DNA of 64,000 nt, taken from positions 12,785 to 76,784 of the IMG/VR virus record IMGVR_UViG_2619619029_000002. One strand, 5' to 3'. The position numbers and the translations under genes were made by a program. The DNA is from a virus. Lineage: Duplodnaviria; Caudoviricetes. The notes below the pieces were generated by a model that saw nothing but the letters and a program-made list of their open reading frames with translations, was not told where the DNA came from and searched no databases. The first letter of the stretch is position 1. Each line of letters begins with the position of its first letter. Below are positions 14,676-47,951 of the stretch, piece after piece.

Positions 14676-15086
14676 TCACGTACCGGCGCCGATGCTCTCG
14701 CGCTGCCTCACCGCGCGGAGGAACTGCAAGAGAGGAGTCGGCGCCCCCAGCACCTCGAGGATTTCCTCCCGAGTGGCGAAGCCGCGCAGGTGGATGCCGT
14801 TGAGGCACCCGTCGCAGATGAAGTCAGCGTCCGTGGCGAGCCCCCACGCCGCGCGTGTCGCCGGCGGCACCATGGACACGTCCGCCATCATGTCCGCCTG
14901 CTGCCGCCGCCCGCATGGGCATGGCCGCAATGGGTTCTCCGGCTCCTCCACCTCCGTGGGCCGCAGAATCTCACCGGCTGGCCCGCGCGCTGGCTCGCCC
15001 GTCATGGCGCGGATAGACGCGGGCGCCGAGCGGGTACGCCGAGCGTCGAGGTGGTCCTTCAGCGTCTTCAGCTTCCACAGTGTCAT
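14676..15086 (-). CDS. small tail-fibre-associated protein (CxC..CxxC)
   Basis: ATGA-coupled to the fibre gene. Confidence 0.6.
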   Translation of the reverse strand: MTLWKLKTLKDHLDARRTRSAPASIRAMTGEPARGPAGEILRPTEVEEPENPLRPCPCGRRQQADMMADVSMVPPATRAAWGLATDADFICDGCLNGIHLRGFATREEILEVLGAPTPLLQFLRAVRQRESIGAGT

Positions 15087-16987
15087 GCGTCCAGGGCCTC
15101 CCAATAGAGCATGTCGCCCACGTCCGGCGTCTTCGAGGCGTATTGGTCCGTCGAGGTGCTGTAGGTGACGCCCGCCCCAGCATCCACGCTGGAGTGCCAG
15201 ACGTGCGCGGTGGGATGGTTACTTCCCGGCGGCACGGACACGGACTTGATGCGCAGGCGCAGCCGGTCCGCTGCGCCCAGGCCCGGAGCCGCCGCCGTCA
15301 GTACCTCGCCGATGTGCGTGTTCACGGACTGCACCCAGTTGACGGTGTTGTTGTTGGAGTTGGCCCACAGGGTGGTTGTCGCGCGTTCCACCCAGGACTG
15401 CCCCACGTCCAGGCTGTCCAGCGCCACGACGATGCTTCCCTGGGCGGAGCCCGGCTCCCAGCTCCCGCCCGCCCCCATCTCGCCTGTGCGCGGGGGCGTC
15501 AGCAGGTAGATGGTGGCAGTGAAACGGAGCGCGTACTGGTCGTTCGTCGCCGGGGCGTTGCTGAGCACCACCTCCACCGTGGAGCCGATGCCGGTGGCGA
15601 GGTTGGCCGAGCTGGCGGGGTTGTTCGTCCGGGCCGTGACGATGCCGCCGCGCTGGCGCAGCCGAGCGCGCAGCGTGAAGCCACTGCCCCCATTCATGAT
15701 TGCCTGGGTGTCATCGTACGTCGGCAGCGCCGCGTTGTAGGTCCCCGTCTCGCTGCCGCTGCCCGTCGCCCCCCACTTCGCCCGCGGCTCGTGCGTCAGG
15801 CCGCCGCGCAACAACACCATGGGCGTGTTTTGAAACGGGGGGTTGAAGGCCACATAGGCCCCGTGCGCGGCGAGCTGCGCTTGGCGCCCCTTGGCGATGG
15901 TACGCGGCGCCCCACTCCCATCGGAGATGCCCACGTTGTAGCTGATGCTCCCGTCCGGGTTGAGAGCCGTGTACACGCGCGGGGTTGCGGACTCATCGAA
16001 GACGTCCACCACTGCGGAGTCGAAATCCGTCACGCCGTTGCCCGCGTCCAGGTTGGCGATGAGCACCAGGGACACGTACCGCGTGGCCTGGTGCATGGGC
16101 CGGGGGTTGCGCGGGTCCTGCGAGGGCCAGTTCTCCGTGACGTTGGCGGACAGCCCCTTCACCCAGCCCGCGAATTCGCTGTACCCGGTGGACGCCGGCA
16201 GCACCGCCCCGGAGATGCAGTAGTAGTGCTGGCTGCCCAAGTCATTGAGGCCGGCCGCGTTCACCATGGTGACGCCGTCCGCCGCCCACCCGACGAGGCC
16301 GCAGTACACCGCCTTCCCGCCGGACGTGGGCTCCTGAAACTGCCGCACGCGGCAGCGCAGGCGGTACAGCTTCGACGGGTCGTACGGCAGCTTCACCGTG
16401 GAGTAAATCCACACCGCGTTGGTGCACCGCAGGGCGTTGCCACCGGAATAGCCCTGGCCGGAAACGAGGGACGCTGCCGGCGGCGGCAGGAGGGGGTTGC
16501 GCTCCCAGTTGCCCAAGTCGAAGGGCGAGCGCTCGAAGGACTCGGTGAATGCGCCCACGGCATTCCGGGAGGCCTCCTGTGCGGCCGCAGCGGGGACATT
16601 CTTCAAGTTCGCGGTGGCCAACTTCACCATGTCGGGGTCCGCCACCACCGCGCCCCCGAGGACGCGCCAGTCGCTCTGCGTGCCGTTGGAGTACAGGGCC
16701 TGGACGGCGCACTTCACCTCCACCGTGGAGGCCAGGCGCAGCGACACCACCGCGCGGCGCTCAGAGGGGCCCACGCGCACCGGCTCCAGGAGGTAGGTGT
16801 CCGTATTGTTGGGGTCGTCCCCCTCGTAGACGGCCACGCTGAAGCCCAGCAGGAGGTGCGCGGGCAGCGTCTCCACGTGCTCCCAGCGAATGTCAAAGTG
16901 CCGCGGCCGAAGCACGCGCGGGTTCGGCTCGCCCGGCGTGACGTCCACGTCGATGCCGCCCTGCAACTCTTTTTCGCGTGAGCGCAT
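15083..16987 (-). CDS. tail fibre / receptor-binding protein
   Basis: Directly after J; beta-rich, with FN3-like and carbohydrate-binding-like segments. Confidence 0.7.
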   Translation of the reverse strand: MRSREKELQGGIDVDVTPGEPNPRVLRPRHFDIRWEHVETLPAHLLLGFSVAVYEGDDPNNTDTYLLEPVRVGPSERRAVVSLRLASTVEVKCAVQALYSNGTQSDWRVLGGAVVADPDMVKLATANLKNVPAAAAQEASRNAVGAFTESFERSPFDLGNWERNPLLPPPAASLVSGQGYSGGNALRCTNAVWIYSTVKLPYDPSKLYRLRCRVRQFQEPTSGGKAVYCGLVGWAADGVTMVNAAGLNDLGSQHYYCISGAVLPASTGYSEFAGWVKGLSANVTENWPSQDPRNPRPMHQATRYVSLVLIANLDAGNGVTDFDSAVVDVFDESATPRVYTALNPDGSISYNVGISDGSGAPRTIAKGRQAQLAAHGAYVAFNPPFQNTPMVLLRGGLTHEPRAKWGATGSGSETGTYNAALPTYDDTQAIMNGGSGFTLRARLRQRGGIVTARTNNPASSANLATGIGSTVEVVLSNAPATNDQYALRFTATIYLLTPPRTGEMGAGGSWEPGSAQGSIVVALDSLDVGQSWVERATTTLWANSNNNTVNWVQSVNTHIGEVLTAAAPGLGAADRLRLRIKSVSVPPGSNHPTAHVWHSSVDAGAGVTYSTSTDQYASKTPDVGDMLYWEALDA

Positions 16988-16996
16988 GCTTTGTCT

Positions 16997-19513
16997 CTAC
17001 GGTGGAGGGGTGGAGGAAACCGTCATGGTGACGGACGCGGGGGTGGTGGGCGCCGCGCGCACGGTGACGGTGGTGTCGTTGGTGGAGTAGTTGCCCGTGG
17101 TGTCGATGGCCTTTACCCGCACCACGTGGTCTGCAGGCCCAGGCACGGGCCACTCGTGCGCGGTGGCGCGTACCTTGGAGATGAAGGTGGCCGAGGCCCA
17201 ATCCGCCCCGCCGTAGCGCAACTCGTAGGTGTCGCGGTCCAGGTCCGGAATCTCGCTCCACCGCAGCGTGGCCGTGTTGCCGTTGAGGGTGTAGCCGAGT
17301 CCCTGCACGTCCGAGGGCGGCGCCAGCTTGCCTTGCACGTTGAGCGAGGCCTCGGCGTAGGCGGTAACGAAGCCGTTGAGGACAGCCGCCACCTGTACGG
17401 AGTACGCGCCCGGGTTGATGTCGCGTAGCTCCCAGAAGTGCGTCTGCACCCCCGTCACCGTCGTCCAATTACCCCCGTCCACGCGCCAGCGCACCACGTA
17501 CTCGGTGGCGCTGGGGCGCTGCGCCCAGCGGGCGTTGAGGGACACCTTCACCCCGCCATTCGTCGTCTTGTAGAGGCTCTCCCCCAGCACGAGGTCCGCG
17601 GGTGGCGCCGAGGAAGGCAGCACGGAGGTGGGCACCGGCTGCAACTTCACGCCGAGCTCCACCTCGTCGTACTTCCCCGGGTGGTGGCGCAGCGCCGTGA
17701 CTTCGTAGAGGTGCGGCTCGACTTCGGCCACGCTGAGAATCCGCCACGTCGTGGGCGCCAAGTCGGACGCCGCGAGCACCCAGACGGCATTCCGGGCGGG
17801 CGCCACGGGGAACGGCGTGGCGACGGTGAGGGCCCGGTACGGCGCCGGCGCCGCGGGCGCCAGCTCGCGCTCCACCGCCGTCCCGTCCGGCATCACCACA
17901 GAGAGGGAGTACGTCTTCCCCGCCTCCAGGGTGACGTCCGCGTCCAGCTCTACCTGGGTGGCAGTGGCGGCCACCACGCGGCCGCCCCAGCGGCGCCCGG
18001 CCCGGTACGGGTCCTGAAGCTTCACCACCGCGCCGGGGTTGCGCAGGGCGCCCTCGAGTCCCGTCCGGAACACCACCGTCTCCGTCTCCAGCCTTTCGGT
18101 GAAGAGGAGCCACCGGCCCACCCGCTGCGCCTGGCCGCGCGAGGTGCACCCCAGCGCCACCACCTCGGTGGGGTTGTAGCCGTACTCGAGCAGGCCTTCC
18201 TCGTCCGTCACGTACTCCTTCGCCGACTTGTAGTGGTTGGCCGGGTCGTTCCACGTCACCAACGCGACGGTGTGCCGCGCGCGCCGGCCGCTGCTGGAGT
18301 ACGTGAAGAGTCCGTCCACCACGTTGGCCGGGGTGAAGAGGTACTCGGCGTCCCGGGGTGCGTCCTGGGCCACGTACACCGCCCCGCTGGCCCAGTACGT
18401 CAGGCTGCGGAAGACGGAGGCGAGGTTGTTCACCACCTGGTACGCGTCCGCCTGCGACTGGAGGTAGAGGTTGCAGCGGAAGCGCGGCTCCTGGCCGCCC
18501 TTCCCGTCCGGCACCAACTCGTCGCAGTAGCGGCCGATGGTGTACAGCCCCCACTTGTCGACGTGGGACTCGTTGAGGAAGCGCCCCAAGCCGTAGCGCT
18601 TCGTCGTCAGCAAGTCGTAGAAGCACCACGCAGGGTTGTCCGTCCACTCCACCTTGAAGGTGCCGTCCCAGGTGCCCGAGTACTCCCGCGTCAGCGGGTT
18701 GTAGTTGCTGGGCACCCGCACCTTCAGCCCCCGAATCCGGTACGAGCGCGTGGGCACCGTCTGAAACTGGTGCGCGGACACCTGGAGGGCGACCAGCGCG
18801 CTGTTGGGGTAGCTGAGCTTCTCGTCGATGAGGGTGGCGTAGGACTTCCACAGCGTCTTGTCCTGCAGGTTGGCCTGCGTGCTGTCCGCGGTGAGGCGCC
18901 GCACGCGGATGTCCCACGGCGCGCTGCCGGTGAGCTCCACGCGGTACGTCCGCTCGTAGGGGCTGGTGCACTTGCCGGCGATGACTCCCGCCCCCTCGAG
19001 GTCCTGCTCAACGTAGCCGCCGCCGTTGCTCTGCACGTCGATGGCGATGTGCACCAAGGACGGCATCAGGTCGCCGGTGAGCGCACTCTGGAAGGTGAGC
19101 TGCGGCACCTGCACGGTGATGCGCACCGCGTCCACGTTGGCGTCGCTGACGGTGCGGACGACGGGCGCGTTGCGCTTCACCTCGGTGTTGACGGAGAACT
19201 CCGCCTCCGCCGACGGAAAGCCGGGGATGTACTCCTGCCCCTGCGTCCCCTGCACGTCGTAGAGGGTGACGTCACGGAAGTTGTAGGTGTCGTTGGGATT
19301 CTGGACGACGACGCCGTCCAGGTAGACGGACTTCAGCTTGTCCACGAGCCCGACGATTTCCCCCTCGCAAAGCAAGTCCAGCACGCGGGCGTAGTTGGTG
19401 GACTTCAGCGTGTCCGGGAGCTCCACGGGCGTGCGCTGCGCGCCGCCACCGCCCTTGCCCCCATTCGCCCCGCCGTAGCCGATGAGGGGGGCCAGCTCAG
19501 ATTTCGACTTCAT
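16997..19513 (-). CDS. central tail tip / host-specificity protein (lambda gpJ-like)
   Basis: DLLCEGEIVGL, VPSNYNP..W.GTFK..WTDNPAWC.YDLL, GCTSRGQA.R.G.W.L, FN3 repeats. Confidence 0.95.
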   Translation of the reverse strand: MKSKSELAPLIGYGGANGGKGGGGAQRTPVELPDTLKSTNYARVLDLLCEGEIVGLVDKLKSVYLDGVVVQNPNDTYNFRDVTLYDVQGTQGQEYIPGFPSAEAEFSVNTEVKRNAPVVRTVSDANVDAVRITVQVPQLTFQSALTGDLMPSLVHIAIDVQSNGGGYVEQDLEGAGVIAGKCTSPYERTYRVELTGSAPWDIRVRRLTADSTQANLQDKTLWKSYATLIDEKLSYPNSALVALQVSAHQFQTVPTRSYRIRGLKVRVPSNYNPLTREYSGTWDGTFKVEWTDNPAWCFYDLLTTKRYGLGRFLNESHVDKWGLYTIGRYCDELVPDGKGGQEPRFRCNLYLQSQADAYQVVNNLASVFRSLTYWASGAVYVAQDAPRDAEYLFTPANVVDGLFTYSSSGRRARHTVALVTWNDPANHYKSAKEYVTDEEGLLEYGYNPTEVVALGCTSRGQAQRVGRWLLFTERLETETVVFRTGLEGALRNPGAVVKLQDPYRAGRRWGGRVVAATATQVELDADVTLEAGKTYSLSVVMPDGTAVERELAPAAPAPYRALTVATPFPVAPARNAVWVLAASDLAPTTWRILSVAEVEPHLYEVTALRHHPGKYDEVELGVKLQPVPTSVLPSSAPPADLVLGESLYKTTNGGVKVSLNARWAQRPSATEYVVRWRVDGGNWTTVTGVQTHFWELRDINPGAYSVQVAAVLNGFVTAYAEASLNVQGKLAPPSDVQGLGYTLNGNTATLRWSEIPDLDRDTYELRYGGADWASATFISKVRATAHEWPVPGPADHVVRVKAIDTTGNYSTNDTTVTVRAAPTTPASVTMTVSSTPPP

Positions 19514-20570
19514 GCGGTGCCTCCGGGTCTGCGCGCTTGGCGTTGTGCGAGAGGAAGCTCAGCGTCTGGTACGTGTGCGCGCCGTCCACGGTGATGCGCA
19601 CCACGGGCCCGCGTCCGCACGCCGCCACCTCCCGCACCACGCCGGGCTGGGCACCCAGCAGCAGCGCGCCGGGCACCAGGTGCCGCAACTCCACCCAGTC
19701 CGCCTCGGTGCGCACGCGGTGGTTGTACGTGCCCACGAAGGCGCGCCCGTCCTCCAGCTCCAACCGCCAGCACTCCGCCTCCAAGAGGGCCACGTCCGTG
19801 ACGGGGTACGCGCCCCACCGCAGCGTCGTCTCCTGCTGGGTGAGGACGCGCATGCCCACCTCCACCTCGCCGGCGGGCACCTCCCGCCCGTCGGCCAGGA
19901 GAATGGGCACCCACGGCGCCGGGCACCCGCCGCCCGAGGGCCCCTGCCCGCCCGGCCCCGTCTGCCCGCTGCCGTACTTCCCGCCGAAGCCGCCGCCCTC
20001 GCTCCACTCGGTGACGATGCCTGCGGAGATGACGCAGGAGCCCACCTCCAGCTCGCCGTAGCAGATGGGCACCGGGTGGCCCTGGGCCAGCGTGTTGACG
20101 GGCCCGTTGAAGGCGTAGTTGGGCTTGTTCTTCGGCTCCTCGTCTGGCGCCGCGGGCACAGGCGGGGCGAAGAGCATCTGCGAGACGCCGCCCACCACCA
20201 GGGAGGCGCCCATGGTGATGAGGGGCGTGCCGGCGCCGAAGCCGTAGGCCGAGAGGGCCGCGCCGCCCGCGATGAGGACGGCGCCCAGCACCACCTGGAA
20301 GACGCCCTGCTTCGCCCCGGCCAGCGCCGGCATGACGGTAATGACGGGCGCGTCGGCGGGGCGCGTCAGCTCGTCCTGGCCCACGTCGCGCTTGCCGACA
20401 AAGACGTGGAAGCCCGGCTCGCTGTGCGTCACCAGGTAGCGCGCGAAGCCCTCGCACACCGCAGAGAGAGCGCGCACGGCCTCCGCGGGCGAGGGCACGC
20501 TCAAGTCCAACCGCCAGACGCGGCCGAAGCGCCGGCCCAGCGGACCTCCGAGTACCACCGTCGTCAGCAT
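19497..20570 (-). CDS. tail assembly protein I (lambda gpI-like) fused to a C-terminal Hint/BIL domain
   Basis: LGGPLGRRFGR..EAVRAL..QGHPVPICYG (gpI); C-PAPWVPILLADG..TYNH..HTY...SHN (Hint). Confidence 0.88.
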   Translation of the reverse strand: MLTTVVLGGPLGRRFGRVWRLDLSVPSPAEAVRALSAVCEGFARYLVTHSEPGFHVFVGKRDVGQDELTRPADAPVITVMPALAGAKQGVFQVVLGAVLIAGGAALSAYGFGAGTPLITMGASLVVGGVSQMLFAPPVPAAPDEEPKNKPNYAFNGPVNTLAQGHPVPICYGELEVGSCVISAGIVTEWSEGGGFGGKYGSGQTGPGGQGPSGGGCPAPWVPILLADGREVPAGEVEVGMRVLTQQETTLRWGAYPVTDVALLEAECWRLELEDGRAFVGTYNHRVRTEADWVELRHLVPGALLLGAQPGVVREVAACGRGPVVRITVDGAHTYQTLSFLSHNAKRADPEAPHEVEI

Positions 20571-21295
20571 AGGGCGCGGTGTCGGACTACTTTCCGGGTG
20601 ATTCGCTCCCAGAAGCCCGAGTACGTCTCCCTTCCAGAGAGGCGATTCTGGAGGTGGTGGAGGACGACGTCCGCCCCCAAGTAGACGCCCGCGTGGTTGG
20701 GCACCGGGGCGCGCAATTGCATGAGGAGGACGTCATGCTCGCGCAGCGCCTGGCCGGTGACGTCCACGAAGCCCGCCTGGGCGTACCCCTCCAGGTAGAG
20801 GTTGCCGCCCTTGTCCCACCAGCCGTTCGGCCGGTGGAAGTCGGGCAGCTCAAGGCCCAGCCGCTCCTGGAAGTAGTCGCGGATGAGGGAGAAACAGTCC
20901 AGGACGCCGTGGCTGAAGGGGCGGCCCACCAGCGGCGGCCGGTACCCGGTGGGGTGCCACACCCGCCAGTGGCCCACGGGCACGTTGACGATGAGCCAGG
21001 GCAGGCCCCAGCGCTCCATGCTGACGCGGTCCGCCTCGCTCGGCTCCGGGGCGGCGTTGGGGTGAGAGTGCACCACCGCCACCACCTCCCCTTCCTCCTC
21101 CGCTCGTGCGTAGTCCTCCGGGTGGAGGATGAAGTGGGCTTGCCCCTCGGCCTGGTTACGGCAGGGCACGTACCGCTGCTCCCCGGCGACGGACACCACG
21201 AGGCCGCAGGACTCGCGGGGGAACTCGGTTCGCGCATGGCGCAGCGCTGCTTCGACGACAGCGCCTGAGAGGGAAAGCACGGCTAGAGCGCTCAT
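20564..21295 (-). CDS. tail assembly protein K (JAB/MPN + NlpC/P60)
   Basis: ESCG..HSHP....PSEAD; DCFSLIRDYF..NHAGVYLG..LHH. Confidence 0.93.
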   Translation of the reverse strand: MSALAVLSLSGAVVEAALRHARTEFPRESCGLVVSVAGEQRYVPCRNQAEGQAHFILHPEDYARAEEEGEVVAVVHSHPNAAPEPSEADRVSMERWGLPWLIVNVPVGHWRVWHPTGYRPPLVGRPFSHGVLDCFSLIRDYFQERLGLELPDFHRPNGWWDKGGNLYLEGYAQAGFVDVTGQALREHDVLLMQLRAPVPNHAGVYLGADVVLHHLQNRLSGRETYSGFWERITRKVVRHRALC

Positions 21296-21351: not shown

Positions 21352-22695
21352 TCAGCTACTCCTTGTTTTCTGCAACGACTCGATTCCTTTCCGGTCAAAA
21401 CGAATAGACCCACCAGTCGGCAGAGGGAGCGACACTTCTGCAGACGCCCCAAGAATGGCGGAGGCCAAGCGCTCCGAAGCATCAAGCGGCTCCTCTGATG
21501 CCGTATCTGAGCCAAAGAGCCCTGAACTGAGCCGATCAATCAGAATCGTCGGCGGTTCTGTCCCCTTCTCGGTCTTCCACTCCAGCGCTGTTTCCACTAG
21601 CCAACTCGCGCGGTCGAGATCCAAGCCGAGCCGCTTCAGACGGAACTCCTCAGAGGCATGCTGCTCAAGCCAGCGATTATTCCACTTAATATAAAACACA
21701 AGAGCGCTCACAAACCCCGCCGTCAGCGCAGCCTGCTTCACACCCCAAAACACCCATGCAGCAACAGATATTGGAACACCAGTAACAATCAAGTACACAT
21801 TCACAACCGATGACACGACGGTCAAAACCAGGAGACTACCCGCAAGCCACAAGCTCGCATTCTTGACTGGATTCCTAAGCTCTTTCGTCCCCTCGGTCAG
21901 ACTGAATTTCTCAGCACTGGCCTGCAGCTCCCTTTTCTGGTCCTTCCGAATCTCACGGCGAACGTGGCGAGTGTCGCGGTCATCAATCTCTGCCATCCTT
22001 CGCGTGATTTCCTTTTCTCGCGCTTCCAGGCTGGCCTCGCGCTCCTGAAGCATCGACGCAATTCGATTTCGTTCAACCACATTTGCAACATCAAGTTCAT
22101 GCCGACGAGCAACATACTCTTCTTCAAGCCGTGCGCGCGTCGCAGCAATTCCATCTGCAAGCTTCGCCGCCATCGAGCGCCCAAGCTCTTCCACCTTAAG
22201 CAACTCAACTTCACGGCGCTCCAAGAATTGCTTAGTCTCCCCCAAGCGCCCAAGTTGGCCAACAATGCCATCTCGGGCATCAAGGGCGCGCACTGCCCTC
22301 TTAAATGCAGCAACAAACGAAACCACTGCGGCAACCACAGCCGGGGACTCCCCAATGTGATTAAACTCGCTCAGACTAACGGTCACGTTATCCAATGCAG
22401 TGCCGGCTGCTCGTTGGATTTGCACCGAAAACTGGCGGTTCCCGTACGCCATGCCGACAGCAAGACTCGTAATTGCCATCGACTCGCTCGGGAGCGAATC
22501 CAGAATCAGACGACATGTCTTCACAGACTCATCACGCGCTGACAAAGCGGGCCCTATATCCAGCGTCGCGTCGACACTGATGATTCTGAATCCAGACTTC
22601 ACCACATCAGCTTCCGAAAATACTCCAAGAATCGCCGACAACAGCCCTTGGTCTGTCTGTCGCACCGCTTGGAACGAGAAGTTTGACCACCCCAT
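21352..22695 (-). CDS. lower-GC coiled-coil + 2-TM membrane protein (moron)
   Basis: Inserted between L and K; long heptad region, then two hydrophobic helices. Confidence 0.8.
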   Translation of the reverse strand: MGWSNFSFQAVRQTDQGLLSAILGVFSEADVVKSGFRIISVDATLDIGPALSARDESVKTCRLILDSLPSESMAITSLAVGMAYGNRQFSVQIQRAAGTALDNVTVSLSEFNHIGESPAVVAAVVSFVAAFKRAVRALDARDGIVGQLGRLGETKQFLERREVELLKVEELGRSMAAKLADGIAATRARLEEEYVARRHELDVANVVERNRIASMLQEREASLEAREKEITRRMAEIDDRDTRHVRREIRKDQKRELQASAEKFSLTEGTKELRNPVKNASLWLAGSLLVLTVVSSVVNVYLIVTGVPISVAAWVFWGVKQAALTAGFVSALVFYIKWNNRWLEQHASEEFRLKRLGLDLDRASWLVETALEWKTEKGTEPPTILIDRLSSGLFGSDTASEEPLDASERLASAILGASAEVSLPLPTGGSIRFDRKGIESLQKTRSS

Positions 22696-22743
22696 TAGAC
22701 AACCCCCTTGTCGAGTCAACTAGCCAGCCGAGCCGACACTATC

Positions 22744-23439
22744 TCATCGGAGAAGGCCGACGCCGGGAAAGCCTCCGAAGGGAAGCACGGAGGTTTCCCC
22801 GTAGCGCAGCTTGCAGCTCCCCAGGCGCTTCCCGCACCGGTCCTCCTCTGGTGACGTCGTCGGGCTGTCGTCCACCTTCGCCACGGGCGGGCCCACGTAG
22901 CCGCAGCCCTCCTTCCGGTACTCCCACCCGCACATCTGCGTGATGACGCGCAGCGGGATGCGGATGCCGTCCAGGTCGCACCGCGCCGCGAGCGCGAACT
23001 CGATGAAGTGCTTCGACTCGGACGTCTTCTGGTCCACCACGAACTCGTCATCGGGGAATGCCTCCACCGGGCTGGCGGTGGGGTTGACGCCGCCAGGGAA
23101 GTTCACCGCGTCGAGGTAGCGCACGAAGGTGCGCTTGCGGAGGACGCGCGCGCCCAGCAAGTCGTTGAAGTCCCGGGCCAGCGCGCCAATGGTGCCCGCC
23201 ACGTTGGCCATGGTGAGCGTGGGCCGCGGTAGTCGCCCCGTGCCCGACTTCTCGAAGCCCCGCGCCTCCACGGGCCAAGGCTGGTACTCCGCGCCCTGCC
23301 ACACCACCGGCCCACCCAGCCCGTTGGTGCCCGCGTGGAAGTAGCTGATGCCTCCGCCAGCCAGTGACGTGGCGTCCAGGACGAAGAGCTCCACGAGGGC
23401 GCCCGGCTCCAGCTTCTGAATGTCCTCGGCGATGCTCAC
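22744..23439 (-). CDS. minor tail protein L (lambda gpL-like)
   Basis: VELFVLD..PTLTMAN..RKRTFVRYLDAVNF; Cys cluster C..YR...C.Y...C.KRL..C..R; GTGA coupling. Confidence 0.93.
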   Translation of the reverse strand: MSIAEDIQKLEPGALVELFVLDATSLAGGGISYFHAGTNGLGGPVVWQGAEYQPWPVEARGFEKSGTGRLPRPTLTMANVAGTIGALARDFNDLLGARVLRKRTFVRYLDAVNFPGGVNPTASPVEAFPDDEFVVDQKTSESKHFIEFALAARCDLDGIRIPLRVITQMCGWEYRKEGCGYVGPPVAKVDDSPTTSPEEDRCGKRLGSCKLRYGETSVLPFGGFPGVGLLR

Positions 23440-24026
23440 CCTGCTTCCTCCTGGAACTCGGCGGAGACGTCGTAGGCGTTGAAGCCCTTCAGCGTGCTCG
23501 TCCACCGCTCGCAGACGACGCGCAGCACTTGGGCGCCGGCCGCGGTGAAGGTGAGCTGGGCGCCTGCGGGCGGCGCTGCCGAGAAGGTGACGAGCCCGGA
23601 AGGGGCGAGGGAGTAGTCGGACCCCTCCGCCAGCAGCACCCCGGCGCGGTACACGAGCGGCGCAGCCTCCCAGCCCACGGCGGGCACCAGCTCGTCCACC
23701 GTCGCGTCCGGAGCCAAGGGGCGCTGCAAGAGGAACTGCGTCCTGGCCCCGTCCCCGATGCCGAACGCCTGGCCAGTGACGCCCCAGGCGCTGTCCGGTG
23801 CCACGAACTCGAAGGCGGCCACTCCGCGGTGCGCGCGGAGGAAGGCGTCCACCGCGTCTGCCTCTTCCTTTCGGCGGGCAGTGAACTGGAGGGACCAGCG
23901 CTGGAGGAGGCCCCGGGCACCGTCCTCCGAGCGCTGGGAGTAGCCGTCGCCGAACTGGGCCTTGCGCACGCGCGGCTGGCTCTCAAGCTGGGCGCCCCAA
24001 CTCGGCGTGAAGGGGAAGCGTTCCAT
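23436..24026 (-). CDS. minor tail protein M (lambda gpM-like) with an inserted ~85-aa domain
   Basis: VRKAQFGDGYSQR..W.L.F...FL..H.G..AF.F and C-terminal V.CE.W....SAEFQE. Confidence 0.85.
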   Translation of the reverse strand: MERFPFTPSWGAQLESQPRVRKAQFGDGYSQRSEDGARGLLQRWSLQFTARRKEEADAVDAFLRAHRGVAAFEFVAPDSAWGVTGQAFGIGDGARTQFLLQRPLAPDATVDELVPAVGWEAAPLVYRAGVLLAEGSDYSLAPSGLVTFSAAPPAGAQLTFTAAGAQVLRVVCERWTSTLKGFNAYDVSAEFQEEAG

Positions 24027-24333
24027 GGCGCCATGTTCGCGGCATGGGTGGACCGCGTCCCGCGCCAAACCCGAGGCGTATGTCGTCGCGGCAGTCCAGC
24101 AGTCTAAACGTGTCTACCAAAGTGCGTCATCCCCCTGCAGAGGTACATTCTTCTCTGCCGCATGCCGCTAGGCTTCTACTCCCGATGACGGCGGCATCGC
24201 GCCTCCTCATCCCAGGAAGCACACTCGATGGAGTCCGGGGTAGTTAGTGACTCACCTCTAGCTGCTTGCTTTTGCGCTCCAGTAGATCGCACTCTCCGCC
24301 GCAATTTCAGGCCCACATCAGAGGAAGCCAAGG

Positions 24334-25236
24334 ATGGCGAAGTCTCGTCGGATGACGGTTCATTTCTATCGCGTGAACATGCCCCAAGGGCACGAGTTCC
24401 AGACCCTCCTTAACACCGTGTTCGGATTCTCAGCCGCCGAGAGATCTATCGAAGTCGGTGGGGTCCCCTATCGTTTGGAGTCCCTCACGATGGACAGCAG
24501 ATACTGCGAAGGAGAAATGGTTCGACTGCGCGAAGACTACCACCCCGGCAAGTACCGCATGGATGCACAAGGGGCGACCGACCTTGGATTGGCGGAAGAT
24601 GAGCTCATTGGTGAAGAAACGGCTTTCATCTATGACACCAGCCTGAACATTTTGGGACTTCAAAAGGTTCATGGCGGCGTTGCGGCCGGTGCCTTTGCTG
24701 GCTACTTCCGCCGGTTCATCCCGACCGCAGCAGACGCATTTGGACTGGAGGTCGTGCTGAGTGCGGACCCGGTTCGCCAGATGACACAGTTGCGCGAAGT
24801 GAAAACGTTCGAGGTAGAAGTCGCAGCTGTGCCAACGGACGTGTTTCACGGGATGGACACGATGAAGGCCCTCGCGAGAACGCAGGCTGAGTCAGGCGCT
24901 ACCCGCGTTACCCTGTCACTGGGGATGGGGAGAACGCGTGGAGGCGCCATCGAACGCAATTTTGTGGACGGCCTTCTCAGTAATCTCCTGCGGGTCTTTG
25001 CCGAGGAAGAACATGGGAAGAACGCCATCAAGAAGCTCAAGGTAGGCGGCCCTACTGGAGAAGACCTTGAGGTGCCGATTATCGACCTGCTTTCCCATCG
25101 GCTGGTCCACTACCAACGGTATGAATGGGATGACAGATACGTCCCTTATACTATGCGGCGCCCCCTAGTTAAGTGGGCGTACGAGGCTAGGGAGAACGAA
25201 CTCCGAACCGCATATGGCCCCAGGGCAAATTTATGA
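24334..25236 (+). CDS. DUF6731/DUF4747-like protein, first gene of a lower-GC two-gene moron
   Basis: MTVHFYRV..EETAFIYD..LGLQ..IDLLSHRL pattern; family call tentative. Confidence 0.6.
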   Translation: MAKSRRMTVHFYRVNMPQGHEFQTLLNTVFGFSAAERSIEVGGVPYRLESLTMDSRYCEGEMVRLREDYHPGKYRMDAQGATDLGLAEDELIGEETAFIYDTSLNILGLQKVHGGVAAGAFAGYFRRFIPTAADAFGLEVVLSADPVRQMTQLREVKTFEVEVAAVPTDVFHGMDTMKALARTQAESGATRVTLSLGMGRTRGGAIERNFVDGLLSNLLRVFAEEEHGKNAIKKLKVGGPTGEDLEVPIIDLLSHRLVHYQRYEWDDRYVPYTMRRPLVKWAYEARENELRTAYGPRANL

Positions 25237-25829
25237 CGACTCAGAGTCCTTCAACTTCAACACTATCCAGGAAGAAGAAGGTCGCCATCATCTGGGAACG
25301 GGTGTACCCCAGCACTGTTGGAGTGATTGTGACTGCTGCGGCTGCGGGCGCTCGCTGGAAGTTTCCCGAGTGGAAGCTTCCCAGCGACCTGGGGCAACTT
25401 TTCTCGTCCACCCTGGACCTTGGAGCCATCGCTATCGGATTCTTGGCGACCGCCAAGGCTGTCTTGCTCTCGATCCAAGGGAGCCCTGCCGTTACGAAGA
25501 TGCGAGGAACCGGCCTGTATGAAGGACTACTCAGATTCATTCTGAGAGCTATTCAAGCAACCTTCACTCTGGCGGCGTATAGCCTCGTAGCTATTTTCCT
25601 TGAGAAGGCTTTCGATCATTCGACGCTAAAATGGCAACTTGTCGTGCTCATATGGATTTTCTTGGTCGTTACAGCAGGACTCGCTTGCTACCGCGTTATT
25701 GACGTCTTCTTCACGATCCTCAGCCCTCGCGACATTTCGACACTTGCTCCTAAGGAGCAGAGTAGTTCTGCTACACCTCTCACTATCCTTCCTCCTTCGC
25801 GGAAGGAACCGATGCAAGGTGATAACTGA
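25233..25829 (+). CDS. multi-pass (about 4 TM) membrane protein
   Basis: Four hydrophobic segments; ATGA-coupled to the previous gene. Confidence 0.8.
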   Translation: MTTQSPSTSTLSRKKKVAIIWERVYPSTVGVIVTAAAAGARWKFPEWKLPSDLGQLFSSTLDLGAIAIGFLATAKAVLLSIQGSPAVTKMRGTGLYEGLLRFILRAIQATFTLAAYSLVAIFLEKAFDHSTLKWQLVVLIWIFLVVTAGLACYRVIDVFFTILSPRDISTLAPKEQSSSATPLTILPPSRKEPMQGDN

Positions 25830-25849
25830 AACGCCCCTCCGTACTCGCT

Positions 25850-25976
25850 GCGGTGAGCCCCCTGAGCCATCCCCTCATTTGAAGATTCCCCTTGGAGAAC
25901 GCATGGGCAGCCGAGCGAGCAAGCTCAGAGGGGAAATCGAGAATGAGGGGATGCTTCAGGTGATCCCCCTCACCGC
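25850..25976. repeat. long imperfect inverted repeat (about 125-nt hairpin)
   Basis: 25861-25880 vs 25941-25960 17/20 complementary; GCGGTGAG/CTCACCGC outer pair; GATTCCCC/GGGGAAATC inner pair. Confidence 0.8.
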
Positions 25977-26138
25977 TTCCGGTTGACGAATCCTCCGGGC
26001 CGCATCTCCTCCAGCATGACCCGGCGGACAGCTCCACCCAGGTGCTGCCCAGGCGCCGCGACTCCTCCGTCGTGCCAAGCGTCTGGACGTCCGCGCTCAC
26101 CGAGCCGTCCTGGTGCACGTTGAGGGGCGGCACGGAGC
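25970..26138 (-). pseudogene. degenerate duplicate of the tape-measure gene 3' end
   Basis: Encodes VPPLNVHQDGSVSADVQ..GTTEESRRLG, a 1-nt deletion, then RRVMLEEMRPGGFVNRKR*; matches 29700-29890. Confidence 0.92.
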
Positions 26139-26147
26139 CAGCGTCCC

Positions 26148-26603
26148 CTACTCCCCCAACCAGAAAGAGCGACCGCCGCTCTTCAGCGCTCGAGCGAGGA
26201 ACTCCTCGAATGACGGTGCAATCGGGTCCACCTTCGGGAATGTCTCATGGAAGGCGTCGAACAGAGGGTACCTTGGGGACTTCGGCTCCACGTCGACGAC
26301 GACGTAGTTGGTGTCCTGCATGTCGACCAGGGCATACAGCGACGGTGAGCCGTAGGCGTCTTCGTCGCGGCCGAAGATTGCGACGCGCGCACGTCGAATC
26401 TCCGCCAGCGGGAGAATCCGATAGTCCGCGTCAGGGACAGGCTCGAAGAGCGCCGCTCCATCGCAGTGGAGGTAGAAGGCTCGCAAGTCAGCATCAAGCT
26501 TCCAGCCCACGCGAGCCTCGAATGCCGCGATTTGGGCAGGCGTCGCGGGAGCGTTGGGGAAGTGGTGTCGCGAGACTTCGGCGAGCAGGGAGTCGATGGG
26601 CAT
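26148..26603 (-). CDS. SMI1/KNR4 (SUKH) immunity protein
   Basis: PATPAQIAAFEARVGWKLDADLRAFYLHCDG..IAPSFEEFL. Confidence 0.9.
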   Translation of the reverse strand: MPIDSLLAEVSRHHFPNAPATPAQIAAFEARVGWKLDADLRAFYLHCDGAALFEPVPDADYRILPLAEIRRARVAIFGRDEDAYGSPSLYALVDMQDTNYVVVDVEPKSPRYPLFDAFHETFPKVDPIAPSFEEFLARALKSGGRSFWLGE

Positions 26604-26610
26604 GGCCGCC

Positions 26611-27252
26611 TCAGTCCACGTAGGGCCGCTCCGGCCCCACGGCTCGCCACTTGCCAGCAGCGTCGTAACAAGCCGGGTAGGCGCTGTTGATGACGTGATG
26701 CACGCCGGGCGGCACAGGAATCACATTGTCGGGAGCCAAGGGAGCGCCCCCATGCGCCAAGTCGAAGATGTGGTGGCCAGGCCAATGCGCCGTCTCCGTC
26801 TTCGGCCAGTCCCCGAACTCCGAGCTCCACTGCCTGCGGAACGTCTTCCGCGCGTCCTCCCACGTCTCGCGTCGATGCTTGAGGTCCGACACCTTGGGGT
26901 AGTCGCAGCAGCAGTGGGTGACGGCCAAGCGCCCGCCCGCAGCGGCCGGAAGCGCCATGAAGCGCCCCTGCCAGTCGCCCTTGATGTCCGCGAGCCAGAT
27001 GCAGCCGAGCAGCGGGACGTGCCCCTCGGCCACGCACCGCCGCTCACAGCGCGCCATGAGCGCGGCACTGCACAGCCAGGGTCCGTAGTAGATGGTCGTC
27101 TGCACCGTCCCACCTGCCGGGCTCGGGATGCTCGGGCCCACCCACTTCGCCGAGGGCTTCGCGCCCACGGCGCTGACGGTGGCCGAGCCGCAGCCGCCAA
27201 GGGCGAGCAGCAGGGACACTCTCACGAAGTGCTGGCAGCGCCATGGCTTCAC
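26611..27252 (-). CDS. lipoprotein HNH/colicin-DNase-like toxin (SitA-like)
   Basis: Lipobox LLLALGGC; Cys-rich middle domain; GHHIFDLAHGG...N......HH nuclease motif; SUKH gene follows. Confidence 0.8.
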   Translation of the reverse strand: MKPWRCQHFVRVSLLLALGGCGSATVSAVGAKPSAKWVGPSIPSPAGGTVQTTIYYGPWLCSAALMARCERRCVAEGHVPLLGCIWLADIKGDWQGRFMALPAAAGGRLAVTHCCCDYPKVSDLKHRRETWEDARKTFRRQWSSEFGDWPKTETAHWPGHHIFDLAHGGAPLAPDNVIPVPPGVHHVINSAYPACYDAAGKWRAVGPERPYVD

Positions 27253-27539
27253 GCAAAACGTGATAGCGCAGACAAAGCAGACGCATAAGTCACCGACTCC
27301 ACGGCTGCCGTGGTGGGTAGGGACCAGTGGCAGACGCTGTCCCTACAGCGCCCGGCCGCGGCATCGGACGCGGGGTGCGGTCCATGTCCGCCCTGCTCGC
27401 CACGACTACACCTACTGCACGTGCATTCAGGCACACCCGGAATGTCAGGCCCGCATGTCAGAAGGGCCGATGGCGCCACAACCCAGGCGGTCGCCGCAGG
27501 ACTCGCCAGGAGTGGAGCCTTTCCTTGGAGGGGACACGC

Positions 27540-28373
27540 ATGCCGCACTGCAGGCCCAACGCACTTCAGCCATTCATGTTCGACAACACCCCGGTCCGGA
27601 CCGTCATCGGGCCGGACGGAGAGCCGTGGCTGATGGCCACCGACGTCTGCGCGATCCTTGGTCTTTCCAACCCGCGCGACGCAGTGGGCCGCCTTGACGA
27701 CGATGAAAAGGCGACCGTCGGTAATGCCGACGGTCAGCCTGGACGCGGGGCACAGACGTTCAACATCATCAGCGAGTCCGGTGTCTGGGCGCTCACGATG
27801 CGGAGCCGAAAGCCCGAGGCGAAGCGCTTCCGGAAGTGGGTGACGAAGGAGGTCATCCCGTCCATCCGGAAGACGGGGGCCTACAACCCTTCCATGGCGA
27901 CGGTCCGCCAAGCCGTAGCGGAGCGTTTCCTCCGCGTCGGCCTGGCGCCCTGGATGAAGCGCTTCCCGGACGCATTCTACGAGGAGATTTTCCGACTGCG
28001 AGGCTGGCCGTGGCAGGGGCCAGGCACTCCACGCCCGGGTGTCATTGCCTACTACACCAACGACCTCATCTACGAGAGGCTGGCGCCAGACCTTCTGCGG
28101 ATGCTCCGCGAGCGCAATCCGGTGGATGCCCACACCAAGAAGCGTCCCTCGAAGCACCACCAACACCTGAGCGATGACGTCGGCCATCCGGGCTTGGAAC
28201 GGCACCTGTACTCCGTCATCTGCATCATGCGTAGTTCGTCCACATGGGATGACTTCATGATTCAGATGGACCGCATCCACCCGCGTTGGGGGAACAGCCT
28301 CCTTCTTCCTCTCATGAACGAACTGCTGCTGCCGCAGCCCCAATCGCCCGCCCCCGCGGTCTTTCCATCCTGA
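27540..28373 (+). CDS. BRO-N + P63C domain antirepressor-like protein
   Basis: F.FDNTPVRTV..GEPW..DVC.ILG.SNPRDA..RKPEAKRFRKWVTKEVIPSIRKTG; W.KRFPD.FY.EIFRL..KHHQHL. Confidence 0.9.
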   Translation: MPHCRPNALQPFMFDNTPVRTVIGPDGEPWLMATDVCAILGLSNPRDAVGRLDDDEKATVGNADGQPGRGAQTFNIISESGVWALTMRSRKPEAKRFRKWVTKEVIPSIRKTGAYNPSMATVRQAVAERFLRVGLAPWMKRFPDAFYEEIFRLRGWPWQGPGTPRPGVIAYYTNDLIYERLAPDLLRMLRERNPVDAHTKKRPSKHHQHLSDDVGHPGLERHLYSVICIMRSSSTWDDFMIQMDRIHPRWGNSLLLPLMNELLLPQPQSPAPAVFPS

Positions 28374-28447
28374 GAAATTCTGGCATGGTGGCTCCAGTCC
28401 CCCGACAAGGAGCCACCGTGGCTAGCAATTCCAGGCAGCGGCACAGA

Positions 28448-28954
28448 ATGGACTTCCTTTGGCGCGTTCGCGAGGCGCTGGCACTGCCCTACTCACTCGT
28501 GGTGCGAGGCGGGGTCCTCGTGTGGCGCCGTGACTCGTACATCAGCACCATGCAGTTCACCGACTACGGTGGGCCAAAAGAAATCGACCGGGTCGACGCA
28601 AACGGGACGTGCTTCTCGCCATCAAGGCAGATGCTCCGGCGCCTGGGGTTCGACTCGCGGGTCTCCTATGTCTCTAGAGACCCTCTACAGCGACGCCTTC
28701 AACTCACAGCCACAGTCGAGGAGTTTCCCGCCCTCGCTCCGTGGCTCGCAGACGAGCTCGGCGCCCGGCTCAGCGGCCTGAACCTCCCTCCATGCCCTGT
28801 TCCGCTCAGCGGCATCAGGGGAGACCACAACATCTGGACCAACTCAGCCAGGGCTGACTATGCCGCATGGGCGAAAGAGGAACAGCTCAAGCGCGACCAG
28901 CAGCGCCAACGCCGCCAGACGGCCTTGATGCACTTTGCCCCCGCGACGCATTGA
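28448..28954 (+). CDS. hypothetical protein
   Basis: 168-aa ORF downstream of the BRO gene. Confidence 0.6.
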   Translation: MDFLWRVREALALPYSLVVRGGVLVWRRDSYISTMQFTDYGGPKEIDRVDANGTCFSPSRQMLRRLGFDSRVSYVSRDPLQRRLQLTATVEEFPALAPWLADELGARLSGLNLPPCPVPLSGIRGDHNIWTNSARADYAAWAKEEQLKRDQQRQRRQTALMHFAPATH

Positions 28955-28960
28955 GCCCAC

Positions 28961-28985
28961 TCACCTCGGCCGGTTGACGAAGTCG
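28961..28985 (-). repeat. 25-bp copy of the last codons of the tape-measure gene
   Basis: TCACCTCGGCCGGTTGACGAAGTCG vs TCACCTCCGCCGGTTGACGAAGTCG at 29700-29724 (24/25). Confidence 0.9.
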
Positions 28986-29011
28986 CACCCCAAGCCAGCC
29001 GCATAGGGAAT

Positions 29012-29040
29012 CGGCCCGCCCCAGAACCTCGGGCGGGCCG
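29012..29040. terminator. GC-rich hairpin between convergent genes
   Basis: CGGCCCGCCC-9 nt-GGGCGGGCCG perfect 10-bp stem. Confidence 0.55.
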
Positions 29041-29100
29041 CCGCACGAGAACAGCCTCCGACTCAAGAACTTGAATCGGTCTCGCGCCTCTCAAAACCAC

Positions 29101-29511
29101 TCACAAAGAAACCGAAATAGGCAGCGTATCTCCCCCATCAGGGGACGTGCCGCGCGATTCCCATACGCCCGGGATATAACCAGAGCGGTCTTCGACCGTG
29201 CATGACGACACACCGTAACATGTTTTGCCATTCGACGACCACAGCGGGCCTGCTGGGAAAGCCAACCTGGCTTGCAAATTAATAACAGGCTGAACCGAAT
29301 CACACACAACGGTAGCTGTTGCCCCCACGCTAATGGGACCAGAGGGGCCGGAAATAACATACGGAGGGGTAACGCTCGTTGAGCACCCCGGAACGACCGA
29401 CTGCTCCTGCGCCACATGGCCTTCACCCATCTCCTCAGGCATGTCCGGCCCGCAACCAGCAGCAACAAGCATCGCACTTGCACTCAAAATCAGAACCACT
29501 GGCCTCTTCAT
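29101..29511 (-). CDS. small Cys-containing lipoprotein (moron)
   Basis: AGGAG RBS; MKRPVVLILSASAMLVAAG-C lipobox; lower GC. Confidence 0.75.
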   Translation of the reverse strand: MKRPVVLILSASAMLVAAGCGPDMPEEMGEGHVAQEQSVVPGCSTSVTPPYVISGPSGPISVGATATVVCDSVQPVINLQARLAFPAGPLWSSNGKTCYGVSSCTVEDRSGYIPGVWESRGTSPDGGDTLPISVSL

Positions 29512-29699
29512 GGAGTCTCTCCTTGGTGATCGGGTTGAGGCGTCCAGCATAGACAGCTTACCTGGGGATACCAAAGGCAATGCGATGTCGGAGCAATCGT
29601 TGCGAAATGACCGCCAATTGCCGAGCATCTTCAGCTTGACATTCTAAGCGCCGCGCATGCTCCCATCCGCTAATGAGAAGCTAGAGCGGCTCTCACTCT

Positions 29700-46841: not shown

Positions 46842-47051
46842 CGCGACTCCAGTATCACCCACCCGAGGTATTCTCCACGAGAGGCATACTGGGCCAGGAT
46901 GCAGTCAGTCGCGACCCTCGTGAAGCCCGCCTCCAAACCTCCTATCCTGCCGCGCGCGACTACCCACAGTGACAGCAATGGTCCGCTCCGTGCAGCCAAA
47001 CCACTGACACCCGCAGTTCAGGACACAAAGCGCATTCAAGAGCACCAAATC

Positions 47052-47951
47052 ATGCCACAGCACACACCCAATCTCGTCGAACTCTCCAGCGCAGAGGCAA
47101 AGCTAAAAATCAGACAATTCATCGAAGACGAACCACTGTTCAGCCCAATAAAGATTCAAATTAAAGATCCAATAAAATCAAACATAAAAGGCATACATCA
47201 ATTGATGCCAGAAACAATACATCTCTACTGCGCAAGTGGAAATTGCAGCCACCTAGCATCAACCACCTGGGAGGCAGTAAACGCATCGGGCTCCCTGCAC
47301 GCATACATTTGCGCCAGCTGCAAAGAAAGCAAGGCACAATACTGGTTTGACGTAAAGCTGATTGAAAAGCAGACAACAGGACTGGTCAATATGTCACCAG
47401 TCGAAGTCATCAAGAGCTTCGAAATATCAAAGCTTGGCCAACGACCTCACTGGGCACCGAAGATTCCAAATCGACTCCTGAAAAACCTCGGCCCGAGTGC
47501 GCAACTGTTTCGCCGCGGCGTAGCATGCCTCCAGGAAGGACTCGGCATAGGAGCCTCCGCTTATTTTCGAAGAGTAATTGAAGAGGAAGTGAAAGCACTT
47601 CTGGATCTAATGGAGAAGGCAGCCAATCTCGACGGCGACCAAGCCGCTCTCGAAAATCTCAAAACAGCAAGAGAGAGCCAAGTAGCTTCCGAGCGACTCA
47701 AGATTGCAGTCCAAAAGGTCCCCATATCGCTTAGACCCGGGAATGCCAATCCACTCGCCGTGCTGTATGGGGCACTCAGCGGAGCCGTTCATCAGGAGCC
47801 AGAAGAGGTCGCAATCGGAACAGCAAAACGGATTCTAAAGACGTTCATATTTCTTTTCGAAGAACTCAAAGAACGAATGGATTCGGCGGAGGCCTATGCA
47901 GCTGAAATCCAGCAAATCCGCGACGAGACGAAAAAATCAAGCAATCACTAA
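47052..47951 (+). CDS. low-GC protein: zinc-finger motifs + DUF4145/HEPN-like helical domain
   Basis: C.SGNC, CASC; GIGASAYFRRVIEE..LYGALSGAVH; family call tentative. Confidence 0.6.
   Translation: MPQHTPNLVELSSAEAKLKIRQFIEDEPLFSPIKIQIKDPIKSNIKGIHQLMPETIHLYCASGNCSHLASTTWEAVNASGSLHAYICASCKESKAQYWFDVKLIEKQTTGLVNMSPVEVIKSFEISKLGQRPHWAPKIPNRLLKNLGPSAQLFRRGVACLQEGLGIGASAYFRRVIEEEVKALLDLMEKAANLDGDQAALENLKTARESQVASERLKIAVQKVPISLRPGNANPLAVLYGALSGAVHQEPEEVAIGTAKRILKTFIFLFEELKERMDSAEAYAAEIQQIRDETKKSSNH

Follow-up and report, generated by a model that had tools for sequence, protein, structure and literature searches.

The window analyzed here, a stretch of 64,000 nucleotides from a virus of the Caudoviricetes (IMG/VR record IMGVR_UViG_2619619029_000002, positions 12,785 to 76,784), carries a prophage whose tail assembly protein gpI is extended at its C-terminus by a Hint domain. 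Profile comparison and structure prediction confirm that this add-on is a genuine Hint domain, i.e., of the horseshoe β-fold, in which the predicted catalytic residues are intact. Judged by its sequence it is a type-A bacterial intein-like (BIL) domain according to the published definition, namely a C-terminal His-Asn without a nucleophile at position +1 (PMC4031507). We consider it most likely, with a probability of roughly 60%, that the Hint domain detaches itself from gpI during tail maturation, either by cleavage or by a BIL-type ligation of the tail peptide; this view is drawn from the sequence and from analogy. The gene and the parts of its product are as follows.

19497..20570, minus strand: gene of gpI with the fused C-terminal Hint domain, 357 amino acids (aa) plus stop codon, an open frame (open reading frame (ORF) list and translation)
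20307..20570, minus strand: N-terminal ubiquitin-like (Ubl, β-grasp) domain, residues 1-88 (Pfam Lambda_tail_I; AlphaFold2 (AF2) model)
20172..20306, minus strand: pair of hydrophobic helices (residues 89-133) that corresponds to H1/H2 in lambda gpI (AF2 helices 89-108 and 114-133)
20001..20171, minus strand: TAPI-C/plug and β-strand region, residues 134-190, the end point of canonical gpI
19926..20000, minus strand: Gly-rich linker of 25 aa, residues 191-215, ending in GPSGGG right before Cys1 (sequence)
19542..19925, minus strand: Hint domain, residues C216-N343, 128 aa (profile, AF2, Foldseek and family conservation)
19500..19541, minus strand: 14-aa tail after the Hint domain, A344 K345 RADPEAPHEVEI (sequence)

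An earlier note on this DNA had described a BIL-type Hint domain of 128 aa that follows a Gly-Gly at the C-terminus of gpI, and all the details of this description can be found again in the sequence. The codon of Cys1 (C216) is TGC at 19925-19923 and directly follows ...GQGPSGGG, the terminal His-Asn (H342-N343) is encoded by CAC AAC at 19547-19542, and the TYNH motif lies in between (T281-H284). The motifs of the Hint fold are thus Cys1 = C216, block B T281-x-x-H284, block F ...VVRITVDGAHTY and block G H342-N343. The residue after the Asn is Ala344, and the resulting expectation that canonical splicing does not take place fits the definition of the type-A BILs. Besides the C-terminal His-Asn and the missing +1 nucleophile, the domain also shares with these that it is appended in a variable region, here beyond the canonical gpI. 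A domain of 128 aa is too small to hold an endonuclease as well.

The Hint fold was established via relatives of the domain, because the sequence from the window alone is too divergent for Pfam. A scan of the C-terminal 158 aa of gpI returned no Pfam family even at E ≤ 10, NCBIfam yielded weak matches (2e-5) to intein segments within a radical-SAM family, and the best hit of a single-sequence search against the PDB was the DnaX mini-intein with a value of 0.2. A profile built from 74 relatives, however, matched the Npu DnaB mini-intein (2.2e-11), the Spl DnaX mini-intein (4.8e-11), gp41-1 (3.9e-9) and the BIL domain of Clostridium thermocellum (2lwy; 4.8e-9). When 121 relatives were scanned with Pfam, 42 of them matched PT-HINT at E ≤ 1e-3 and 23 matched Intein_splicing, and further relatives matched Hint_2, Hom_end_hint or Hint. 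The window protein itself does not match PT-HINT (PF07591) directly, and its link to this family is only transitive, via the relatives.

The structural data agree with the profiles. Residues 216-345 are modeled by AF2 very confidently as an all-β domain, the predicted local distance difference test (pLDDT) value being ~97 over residues 220-340. A Foldseek search with this model returned solely Hint folds (E 5e-12 to 1e-6, template modeling (TM) score by target 0.76-0.87), the best match being BIL2 of the Tetrahymena BUBL (E 4.6e-12), followed by DnaB, gp41-1, BIL, RecA and Hedgehog. The neighbors in the ESM Atlas are viral Hint clusters when compared by features and PT-HINT clusters when compared by structure (TM 0.85-0.88). 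The hidden Markov model search, named as a check in the earlier note, and the fold prediction have thus both come out in favor of a BIL-kind Hint domain behind the Gly-Gly-Gly, with profile matches between 2e-11 and 5e-9.

Two other origins of the fusion were considered. A misassembly or a frameshift fusion was rejected, as it is at odds with the finding that the same architecture is present in four other named genomes and in several metagenomic clusters, with a ratio of nonsynonymous to synonymous substitutions (dN/dS) below 1. For a true intein located between gpI and gpJ and bridged by a frameshift there is no evidence; the gpI tail codons contain the ATG of gpJ in the +1 frame, and no I-Hint-J fusion was found among the 150 best relatives.

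Residues 1-190 of the protein are a bona fide gpI. PHROG family phrog_32 (tail assembly protein) matches residues 2-188 (E 1.6e-54) and Pfam Lambda_tail_I residues 5-86 (E 1.4e-5; 25.8 bits, cutoff 23.8). The layout of Ubl domain, linker and TAPI-C and the location of the gene between gpK and gpJ are also those of gpI/TAPI proteins, for which Iyer et al. described a ubiquitin-like domain, a Gly-rich linker and a TAPI-C domain (PMC1779556). The N-terminal domain is modeled with β-grasp-like strands and helices (pLDDT 89-95), and the hydrophobic helices that follow correspond to H1/H2 as described for lambda gpI (PMC11101478). Residues 139-202 model poorly, with a low pLDDT for the monomer. In the lambda tail tip gpI contributes the hydrophobic helices and the plug, and its C-terminal β-strands augment the sheets of gpJ; the protein is resolved to its last residue, its C-terminal part being built into the lumen of the tip where it pairs with gpJ (PMC10721106, PMC11101478). 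The canonical gpI of ~200-225 aa stops after TAPI-C, whereas the gpI of the window adds 167 aa. In a profile alignment (9.9e-13) the match with 25vf_9, a solved tail assembly protein of 200 aa, extends only up to ...ISAGI..E, i.e., to about residue 188, and the Hint-less gpI of a relative at locus L014 (227 aa, 53% identical) aligns over residues 1-187 only and continues with an unrelated short tail. Because both alignments stop at ~187-188, residues 191-357 are an add-on to gpI.

We then asked how widespread and how well conserved this type of Hint domain is. An exhaustive HMMER search over 1.84 billion representatives yielded 587 representative clusters at E ≤ 1e-3 and 288 at E ≤ 1e-10. The conservation was counted in 149 complete copies from 142 proteins (the 150 best representatives and close homologues). 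Cys1, the block-B His and the C-terminal His-Asn are each present in 149/149 copies, and Ser or Thr stands three residues before the block-B His (position 281) in 131 of them (88%). The C-P-A-P start is conserved to 91-95%, and T244, E247, W292 and the A-H-T-Y before the last strand to 83-96%. Merely 8/149 copies (5%) have Cys, Ser or Thr at position +1, while a Lys occupies +1 or +2 in 144/149 (97%). Gly is found at −2 and −3 in ~63% of the copies. After the His-Asn 20 residues or fewer remain in 96/149 copies (64%) and more than 100 in 37 copies. The signature of the family can hence be written as poly-Gly / C-P-A-P-[WED] ... [ST]xxH[RK] ... AHTY ... SHN / x-K, where the slashes stand for the two junctions.

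The orthologues in four other myxobacteria, which are full-length and 69-92% identical to the gpI-Hint protein of the window (Myxococcus sp. Y35, the closest named one with 92%, Pyxidicoccus caerfyrddinensis, Corallococcus carmarthensis and Myxococcus eversor), were used for an estimate of the selection pressure. The dN/dS values, which are rough in this DNA of 70% GC, amount to 0.15-0.53 for the Hint domain, 0.16-0.42 for the Ubl domain and 0.08-0.65 for the transmembrane/TAPI-C part. The values of the Hint domain fall in the same range as those of the rest of gpI, and it is clearly not decaying.

The conservation bears directly on the idea that the Hint domain is a mere decoration without a catalytic role, which the virion retains on the tail-tip exterior for binding or as a structural element. 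A linker as long and flexible as this one would permit such an arrangement and the carriers are surface-exposed tail proteins; four catalytic positions which are conserved to 100% in 149 diverged copies are, however, not expected for a purely structural domain, and we hold this explanation to be very improbable.

Self-removal, the explanation that we favor, would proceed as follows. Once the protein has folded, Cys216 would attack the carbonyl of Gly215 in an N-to-S acyl shift assisted by the block-B His284, giving rise to a thioester, and Asn343, helped by His342, would cyclize and cut the bond between Asn343 and Ala344. The thioester would be resolved by water, leaving a gpI that ends in ...GGG-COOH, or alternatively, as in type-A BILs, by attack of the amine of the freed Lys-bearing tail peptide. 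In type-A BILs cleavage is dominant and ligation is possible via the amine freed by Asn cyclization (PMC4031507, PMC5874633). Both routes would detach the 128-aa domain, and the mature gpI would keep the part which is structural in lambda, that is the helices, the plug and the strands pairing with gpJ. The Hint module could then be understood as a removable handle for maturation or assembly, analogous in function to the self-cleaving chaperone domains of tail fibers. If in addition the JAB domain of gpK cuts after the Ubl domain, as predicted by Iyer et al. (PMC1779556), gpI would be shortened from both sides, and its mature form would roughly match the portion seen ordered in the tip of lambda.

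Self-removal is supported by the Hint fold and type, by the 100% conservation of the catalytic residues, by the extreme C-terminal bias of the domain and by the complete tail modules in which it is found, as well as by its attachment beyond the end of canonical gpI and by the intact appearance of the prophage. Several points weigh against it. The proposed cleavage chemistry rests wholly on the conserved residues and on analogy, and the role as an assembly handle is analogous, not homologous, to that of the Peptidase_S74-type domains (PMC12403621). The near-invariant Lys at +1/+2 and the poly-Gly before Cys1 would not be needed for plain hydrolysis and hint at a more specific reaction. The 25-residue Gly-rich linker could hold the Hint domain harmlessly outside the tip, and its removal is not structurally required. 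Finally, three tblastn queries against 50,697 records of cultured phages found no member of the family, so that no studied virion with the domain is available for comparison.

The Lys and the poly-Gly are among the arguments for a different outcome, in which the Hint domain acts as a conjugation module. The thioester at Gly215 would be captured by a Lys to form an isopeptide, either by Lys345 in cis (an "isopeptide splice") or by a Lys of a partner such as gpJ, gpL or gpH. With a partner Lys the C-terminus of gpI would be stapled covalently into the tip without ATP. BIL2 of BUBL reacts in this way with ubiquitin-like domains. BIL2, the best structural match, is indeed an isopeptide former; in addition to the Lys at +1 or +2 in 144/149 copies, K345 is invariant in the close homologues, and the flexible poly-Gly before Cys1 would let the thioester reach a distant amine. 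A covalent staple between gpI and gpJ would also be tolerable, as the C-terminal strands of lambda gpI remain on gpJ even in the open state (PMC11101478). On the other hand, the lead of BIL2 over the mini-inteins in the Foldseek search is marginal (E 5e-12 vs 1e-11, at ~20% identity) and the Hint domain is not adjacent to the Ubl domain. The invariant His-Asn cuts the Lys-bearing tail from the Hint domain, and a reaction in cis would merely cap gpI with a 14-aa peptide, for which we see no obvious use. The conserved Lys beside the scissile Asn could instead tune the cyclization of the Asn or finish the last strand. We judge conjugation by gpI to be unlikely. The wider proposal that the dedicated Hint family (poly-Gly / CPAP... 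HN / x-Lys) is an ATP-independent ligase which caps or cross-links tail proteins by isopeptides is, by the same analogy, to be taken only tentatively and seems unlikely to us; it would make the family a viral counterpart of the BUBL "ubiquitination by protein splicing" during virion assembly.

Regarding the 14-aa tail, the Lys at +2 is conserved across the Hint family regardless of the gene downstream, and K345 is invariant in 11 close homologues. The myxobacterial orthologues share a further motif, D-P-E-x-P or, more closely, D-P-E-A-P. The ribosome-binding site of gpJ (GGAGG, 19524-19520) and its start codon (19513-19511) overlap the last codons of the gpI tail, including this motif, and outside the myxobacterial set the motif is not conserved. 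A function of the motif in the protein was therefore rejected in favor of a probable constraint on the nucleotide level.

The earlier note had also connected the Hint domain with the Ubl domain of gpI and the JAB domain of gpK, the released gpI exposing a Gly-Gly or a reactive thioester for conjugation or maturation. This connection did not hold, although the chemical side of the idea, conjugation through a Gly thioester, does have a precedent in BIL2 of BUBL. The β-grasp ends at about residue 86 and the Hint domain starts at residue 216, with the helices and TAPI-C in between; since the Hint domain begins ~130 residues past the β-grasp, the Ubl domain would not itself end in the exposed Gly-Gly. 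Moreover, the same GGG/C...HN/xK module is found on gpJ-like proteins and fibers without a Ubl domain, and the close relative at locus L014 carries the Hint domain on its gpJ homologue (E 4e-296) and none on gpI.

The survey for gpI-Hint fusions, likewise proposed in the earlier note, brought to light at least seven representative clusters with a gpI body, as found by local phmmer searches with the proteins of the window. By the same approach the body of gpJ was detected in five Hint-bearing clusters (in one of them at E 4e-296), and the fiber ORF downstream in the window matches N-terminal parts of seven other Hint carriers. In Pfam the carriers match Phage-tail_3 (11 proteins), FNIII-A_GpJ, Rcc01698_C, PB4 spike, Phage_Tail_Tip, Mtd_N, collagen and carbohydrate-binding modules. 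The carriers lie in tail modules, as the gene orders of three loci show. At L013 the order is tube, TAC, tape measure protein, M, L, K, gpI-Hint, J and fiber; at L014 it is tape measure protein, M, L, K, I (227 aa, no Hint), gpJ-Hint (1380 aa) and lysozyme; and in Sphingomonas (L022) it is tape measure protein, DUF6950 and a Phage-tail_3 protein ending in Hint. Because the carriers comprise gpI, gpJ-like proteins and fibers, the Hint domain is a generic module of the ends of tail-tip and fiber proteins, independent of the Ubl domain of gpI and of the JAB domain of gpK.

Named genomes with the module are those of four myxobacteria, where it resides on gpI, four Sphingomonas, a metagenome-assembled genome (MAG) of the Gemmatimonadaceae and a MAG of the Pseudomonadota. 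In the family to which the window belongs, gpI-Hint occurs in only two of 151 species genomes, and Hint domains on other proteins, mostly of ~1,080 aa, in five. The Hint copy of the window is the only one in its myxobacterial host genome of 9.24 Mb; no second copy was found there. In the cultured phages the tblastn queries mentioned above matched classical inteins in terminase and RecA/UvsX genes and one unannotated fecal phage contig (33% identity).

The domain could also be a selfish or neutral passenger, i.e., a degenerate mini-intein-like element which spreads among rapidly recombining tail genes without benefit to the phage and whose catalytic residues are kept only because failed removal would harm the carrier. 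Tail-fiber genes are known mosaics. The conserved flanks (poly-Gly and xK) move with the Hint domain across unrelated carriers, close relatives bear it on different genes, and in the Hint tree the copies carried by gpI are scattered instead of being united in one clade. The support in this tree is weak (0.43 for the myxobacterial clade), which allows no inference on the number of fusion events. A homing endonuclease is missing, however, and the insertion is not at a conserved site. The strong bias toward the extreme C-terminus of virion proteins (96/149) would be odd for a parasite, dN/dS is well below 1 and the domain is retained across four genera of myxobacterial prophages. The family counts 587 clusters, and the tandem copies and the forms with a conserved C-terminal domain suggest a processing device. 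On balance a passenger seems improbable to us.

Three observations on the copies themselves should be recorded. Tandem Hint copies, two or, in one protein, parts of three, separated by short linkers, are present in P0014, P0017, P0031, P0037 and P0048 as well as in P0066, P0092, P0105 and P0110. Behind internal Hint domains there is often a spacer rich in Pro or Gly and then, at the C-terminus, a conserved module of ~70 aa, ...QPARLADGEFV[IV]PARIVSELGNGSTEAGARKLYAMMDRIQ..., whose carriers include P0019, P0022, P0025-P0027, P0029, P0033, P0034, P0039, P0041, P0045, P0047, P0123, P0134, P0142 and similar proteins. In Myxococcus, proteins of ~1,080 aa end in Hint at L011 (8693-11926, minus strand; G096) and likewise at L005, L007, L009 and L010; the protein at L011 has no Pfam domain, and among its neighbors are DUF2381 and a Ser/Thr kinase, surroundings that do not obviously point to a phage.

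Around the gpI gene the window has the following tail genes.

20564..21295, minus strand: gpK with Prok-JAB and NlpC/P60 domains, overlapping the start of gpI
16997..19513, minus strand: gpJ, the central tail fiber/tip protein of 838 aa, directly downstream and overlapping the tail of gpI
23436-24068, minus strand: gpM of the lambda-like tail module
22744-23505, minus strand: gpL of the lambda-like tail module

The identity of gpK is supported by Pfam matches to Prok-JAB (5.2e-18) and NLPC_P60 (1.2e-12) and by phrog_30 (1.2e-114), and its JAB domain has an intact JAMM motif (HSHP...S..D, read in the translation). For gpJ the matches are FNIII-A_GpJ (1.8e-40), Phage-tail_3 (3.7e-24) and phrog_31 (1e-289). 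On the minus strand the order gpM, gpL, an inserted ORF of lower GC content, gpK, gpI-Hint and gpJ corresponds to a lambda-like tail module, upstream of which are found the tape measure protein, the major head protein, the scaffold, a head morphogenesis protein, the portal and the large terminase. Since head genes, terminase, portal, tape measure, M, L, K, I and J are all present, the prophage looks intact and complete.

The surroundings show some further features. The gene of gpJ ends with TAG, and three codons on, in the same frame (16985-16999, minus strand), a tail-fiber ORF of 634 aa begins (15083-16987); the gpJ homologue P0058 is one protein of 1380 aa that matches the first 834 residues of gpJ at E 4e-296. 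This arrangement could be due to readthrough, to a nonsense mutation or to a module junction. The inserted ORF between gpL and gpK (21352-22719, minus strand; 455 aa) has a GC content of ~0.59 as compared with 0.70, gave no PHROG match at 1e-5 and is likely a moron or cargo gene. Between gpM and the tape measure gene a block of plus-strand ORFs of lower GC content (24070-29700) runs antisense to the tail operon and resembles a hotspot for cargo genes. Just past the terminase end of the prophage the GC content falls sharply to 0.49 (47001-48000), a possible sign of the end of the prophage or of an attachment region.

Inteins, Hedgehog proteins, polymorphic toxins and BUBL loci are already known to contain Hint domains. 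In the full-text literature we searched we found no description of such domains as modules that terminate structural tail proteins of phages. As far as these searches show, the fusion to gpI, the membership in a large family of modules at the ends of tail-tip and fiber proteins and the signature poly-Gly / C...HN / x-Lys are new; the type of Hint domain as such, type-A BIL or PT-HINT-like, is already known. The Hint domain of gpI exemplifies a family which comprises several hundred representative clusters and has a sharp and testable signature. If the domain removes itself, tail proteins would have a second, chemically distinct autoproteolytic maturation handle besides the S74 type, and gpI would be a pro-protein trimmed at both ends, by JAB after the Ubl domain and by Hint at the other terminus. 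Should the Lys act as the acceptor, the family would represent a new, natural way of forming isopeptides in viruses. In both cases, with 128 aa and no Cys, Ser or Thr at +1 downstream, the domain is a compact candidate tool for the generation of C-terminal thioesters or for protein ligation.

Among the closest known systems are the type-A BILs and PT-HINT domains (PF07591; the C. thermocellum BIL 2lwy and the pre-toxin Hint of polymorphic toxins). They share Cys1, the block-B His and the C-terminal His-Asn, they have neither a +1 nucleophile nor an endonuclease, and they are located in variable, non-housekeeping proteins; they are expected to cleave at either junction and now and then to ligate (PMC4031507). 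In contrast to these, the family described here has its own signature and usually sits at the end of a phage tail protein with 4-20 residues to follow. As usually only so few residues are left (14 in gpI), the Hint domain releases no toxin domain.

BIL2 of the polyubiquitin-like BUBL locus of Tetrahymena thermophila (PDB 6y75/6tmm) resembles the Hint domain of gpI in lacking the usual +1 nucleophile and in having an N-extein that ends in Gly, and the TM score by target is ~0.8. BIL2 forms isopeptides between the ε-amino group of a downstream Lys and the C-terminus of the N-extein, and can transfer the latter to several substrates (PMC8616854). The identity is, however, only ~20%. BIL2 stands directly after one Ubl domain and before another, whereas in gpI the Ubl domain lies 130 residues upstream and only the 14-aa tail is located downstream, so that the organization is not that of a BUBL-type unit.

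With the class 1 mini-inteins (Npu/Ssp DnaB, gp41-1 and DnaX) the domain has in common the fold and the four catalytic motifs, and these gave the best profile matches (TM 0.8-0.87). Unlike them it has no Cys, Ser or Thr at +1 and is not inserted at a conserved site of a housekeeping protein, and the Hint-less gpI homologue at L014 shows no contiguous extein junction. The Hog domain of Hedgehog is also a C-terminal Hint domain with a Gly/Cys junction which cleaves off and modifies its N-terminal product (structural match 1at0, E 4e-8). Hog, though, lacks the His-Asn and has a sterol-recognition region, whereas the Hint domain of gpI has an invariant His-Asn and no region for recruiting an adduct. 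The likeness to the Peptidase_S74-type chaperone domains of fibers and tailspikes is confined to function, as these are C-terminal and released by autoproteolysis after aiding assembly (PMC12403621); their fold is unrelated, and they employ a Ser-Lys dyad where the Hint domain of gpI would employ a Cys thioester and Asn cyclization.

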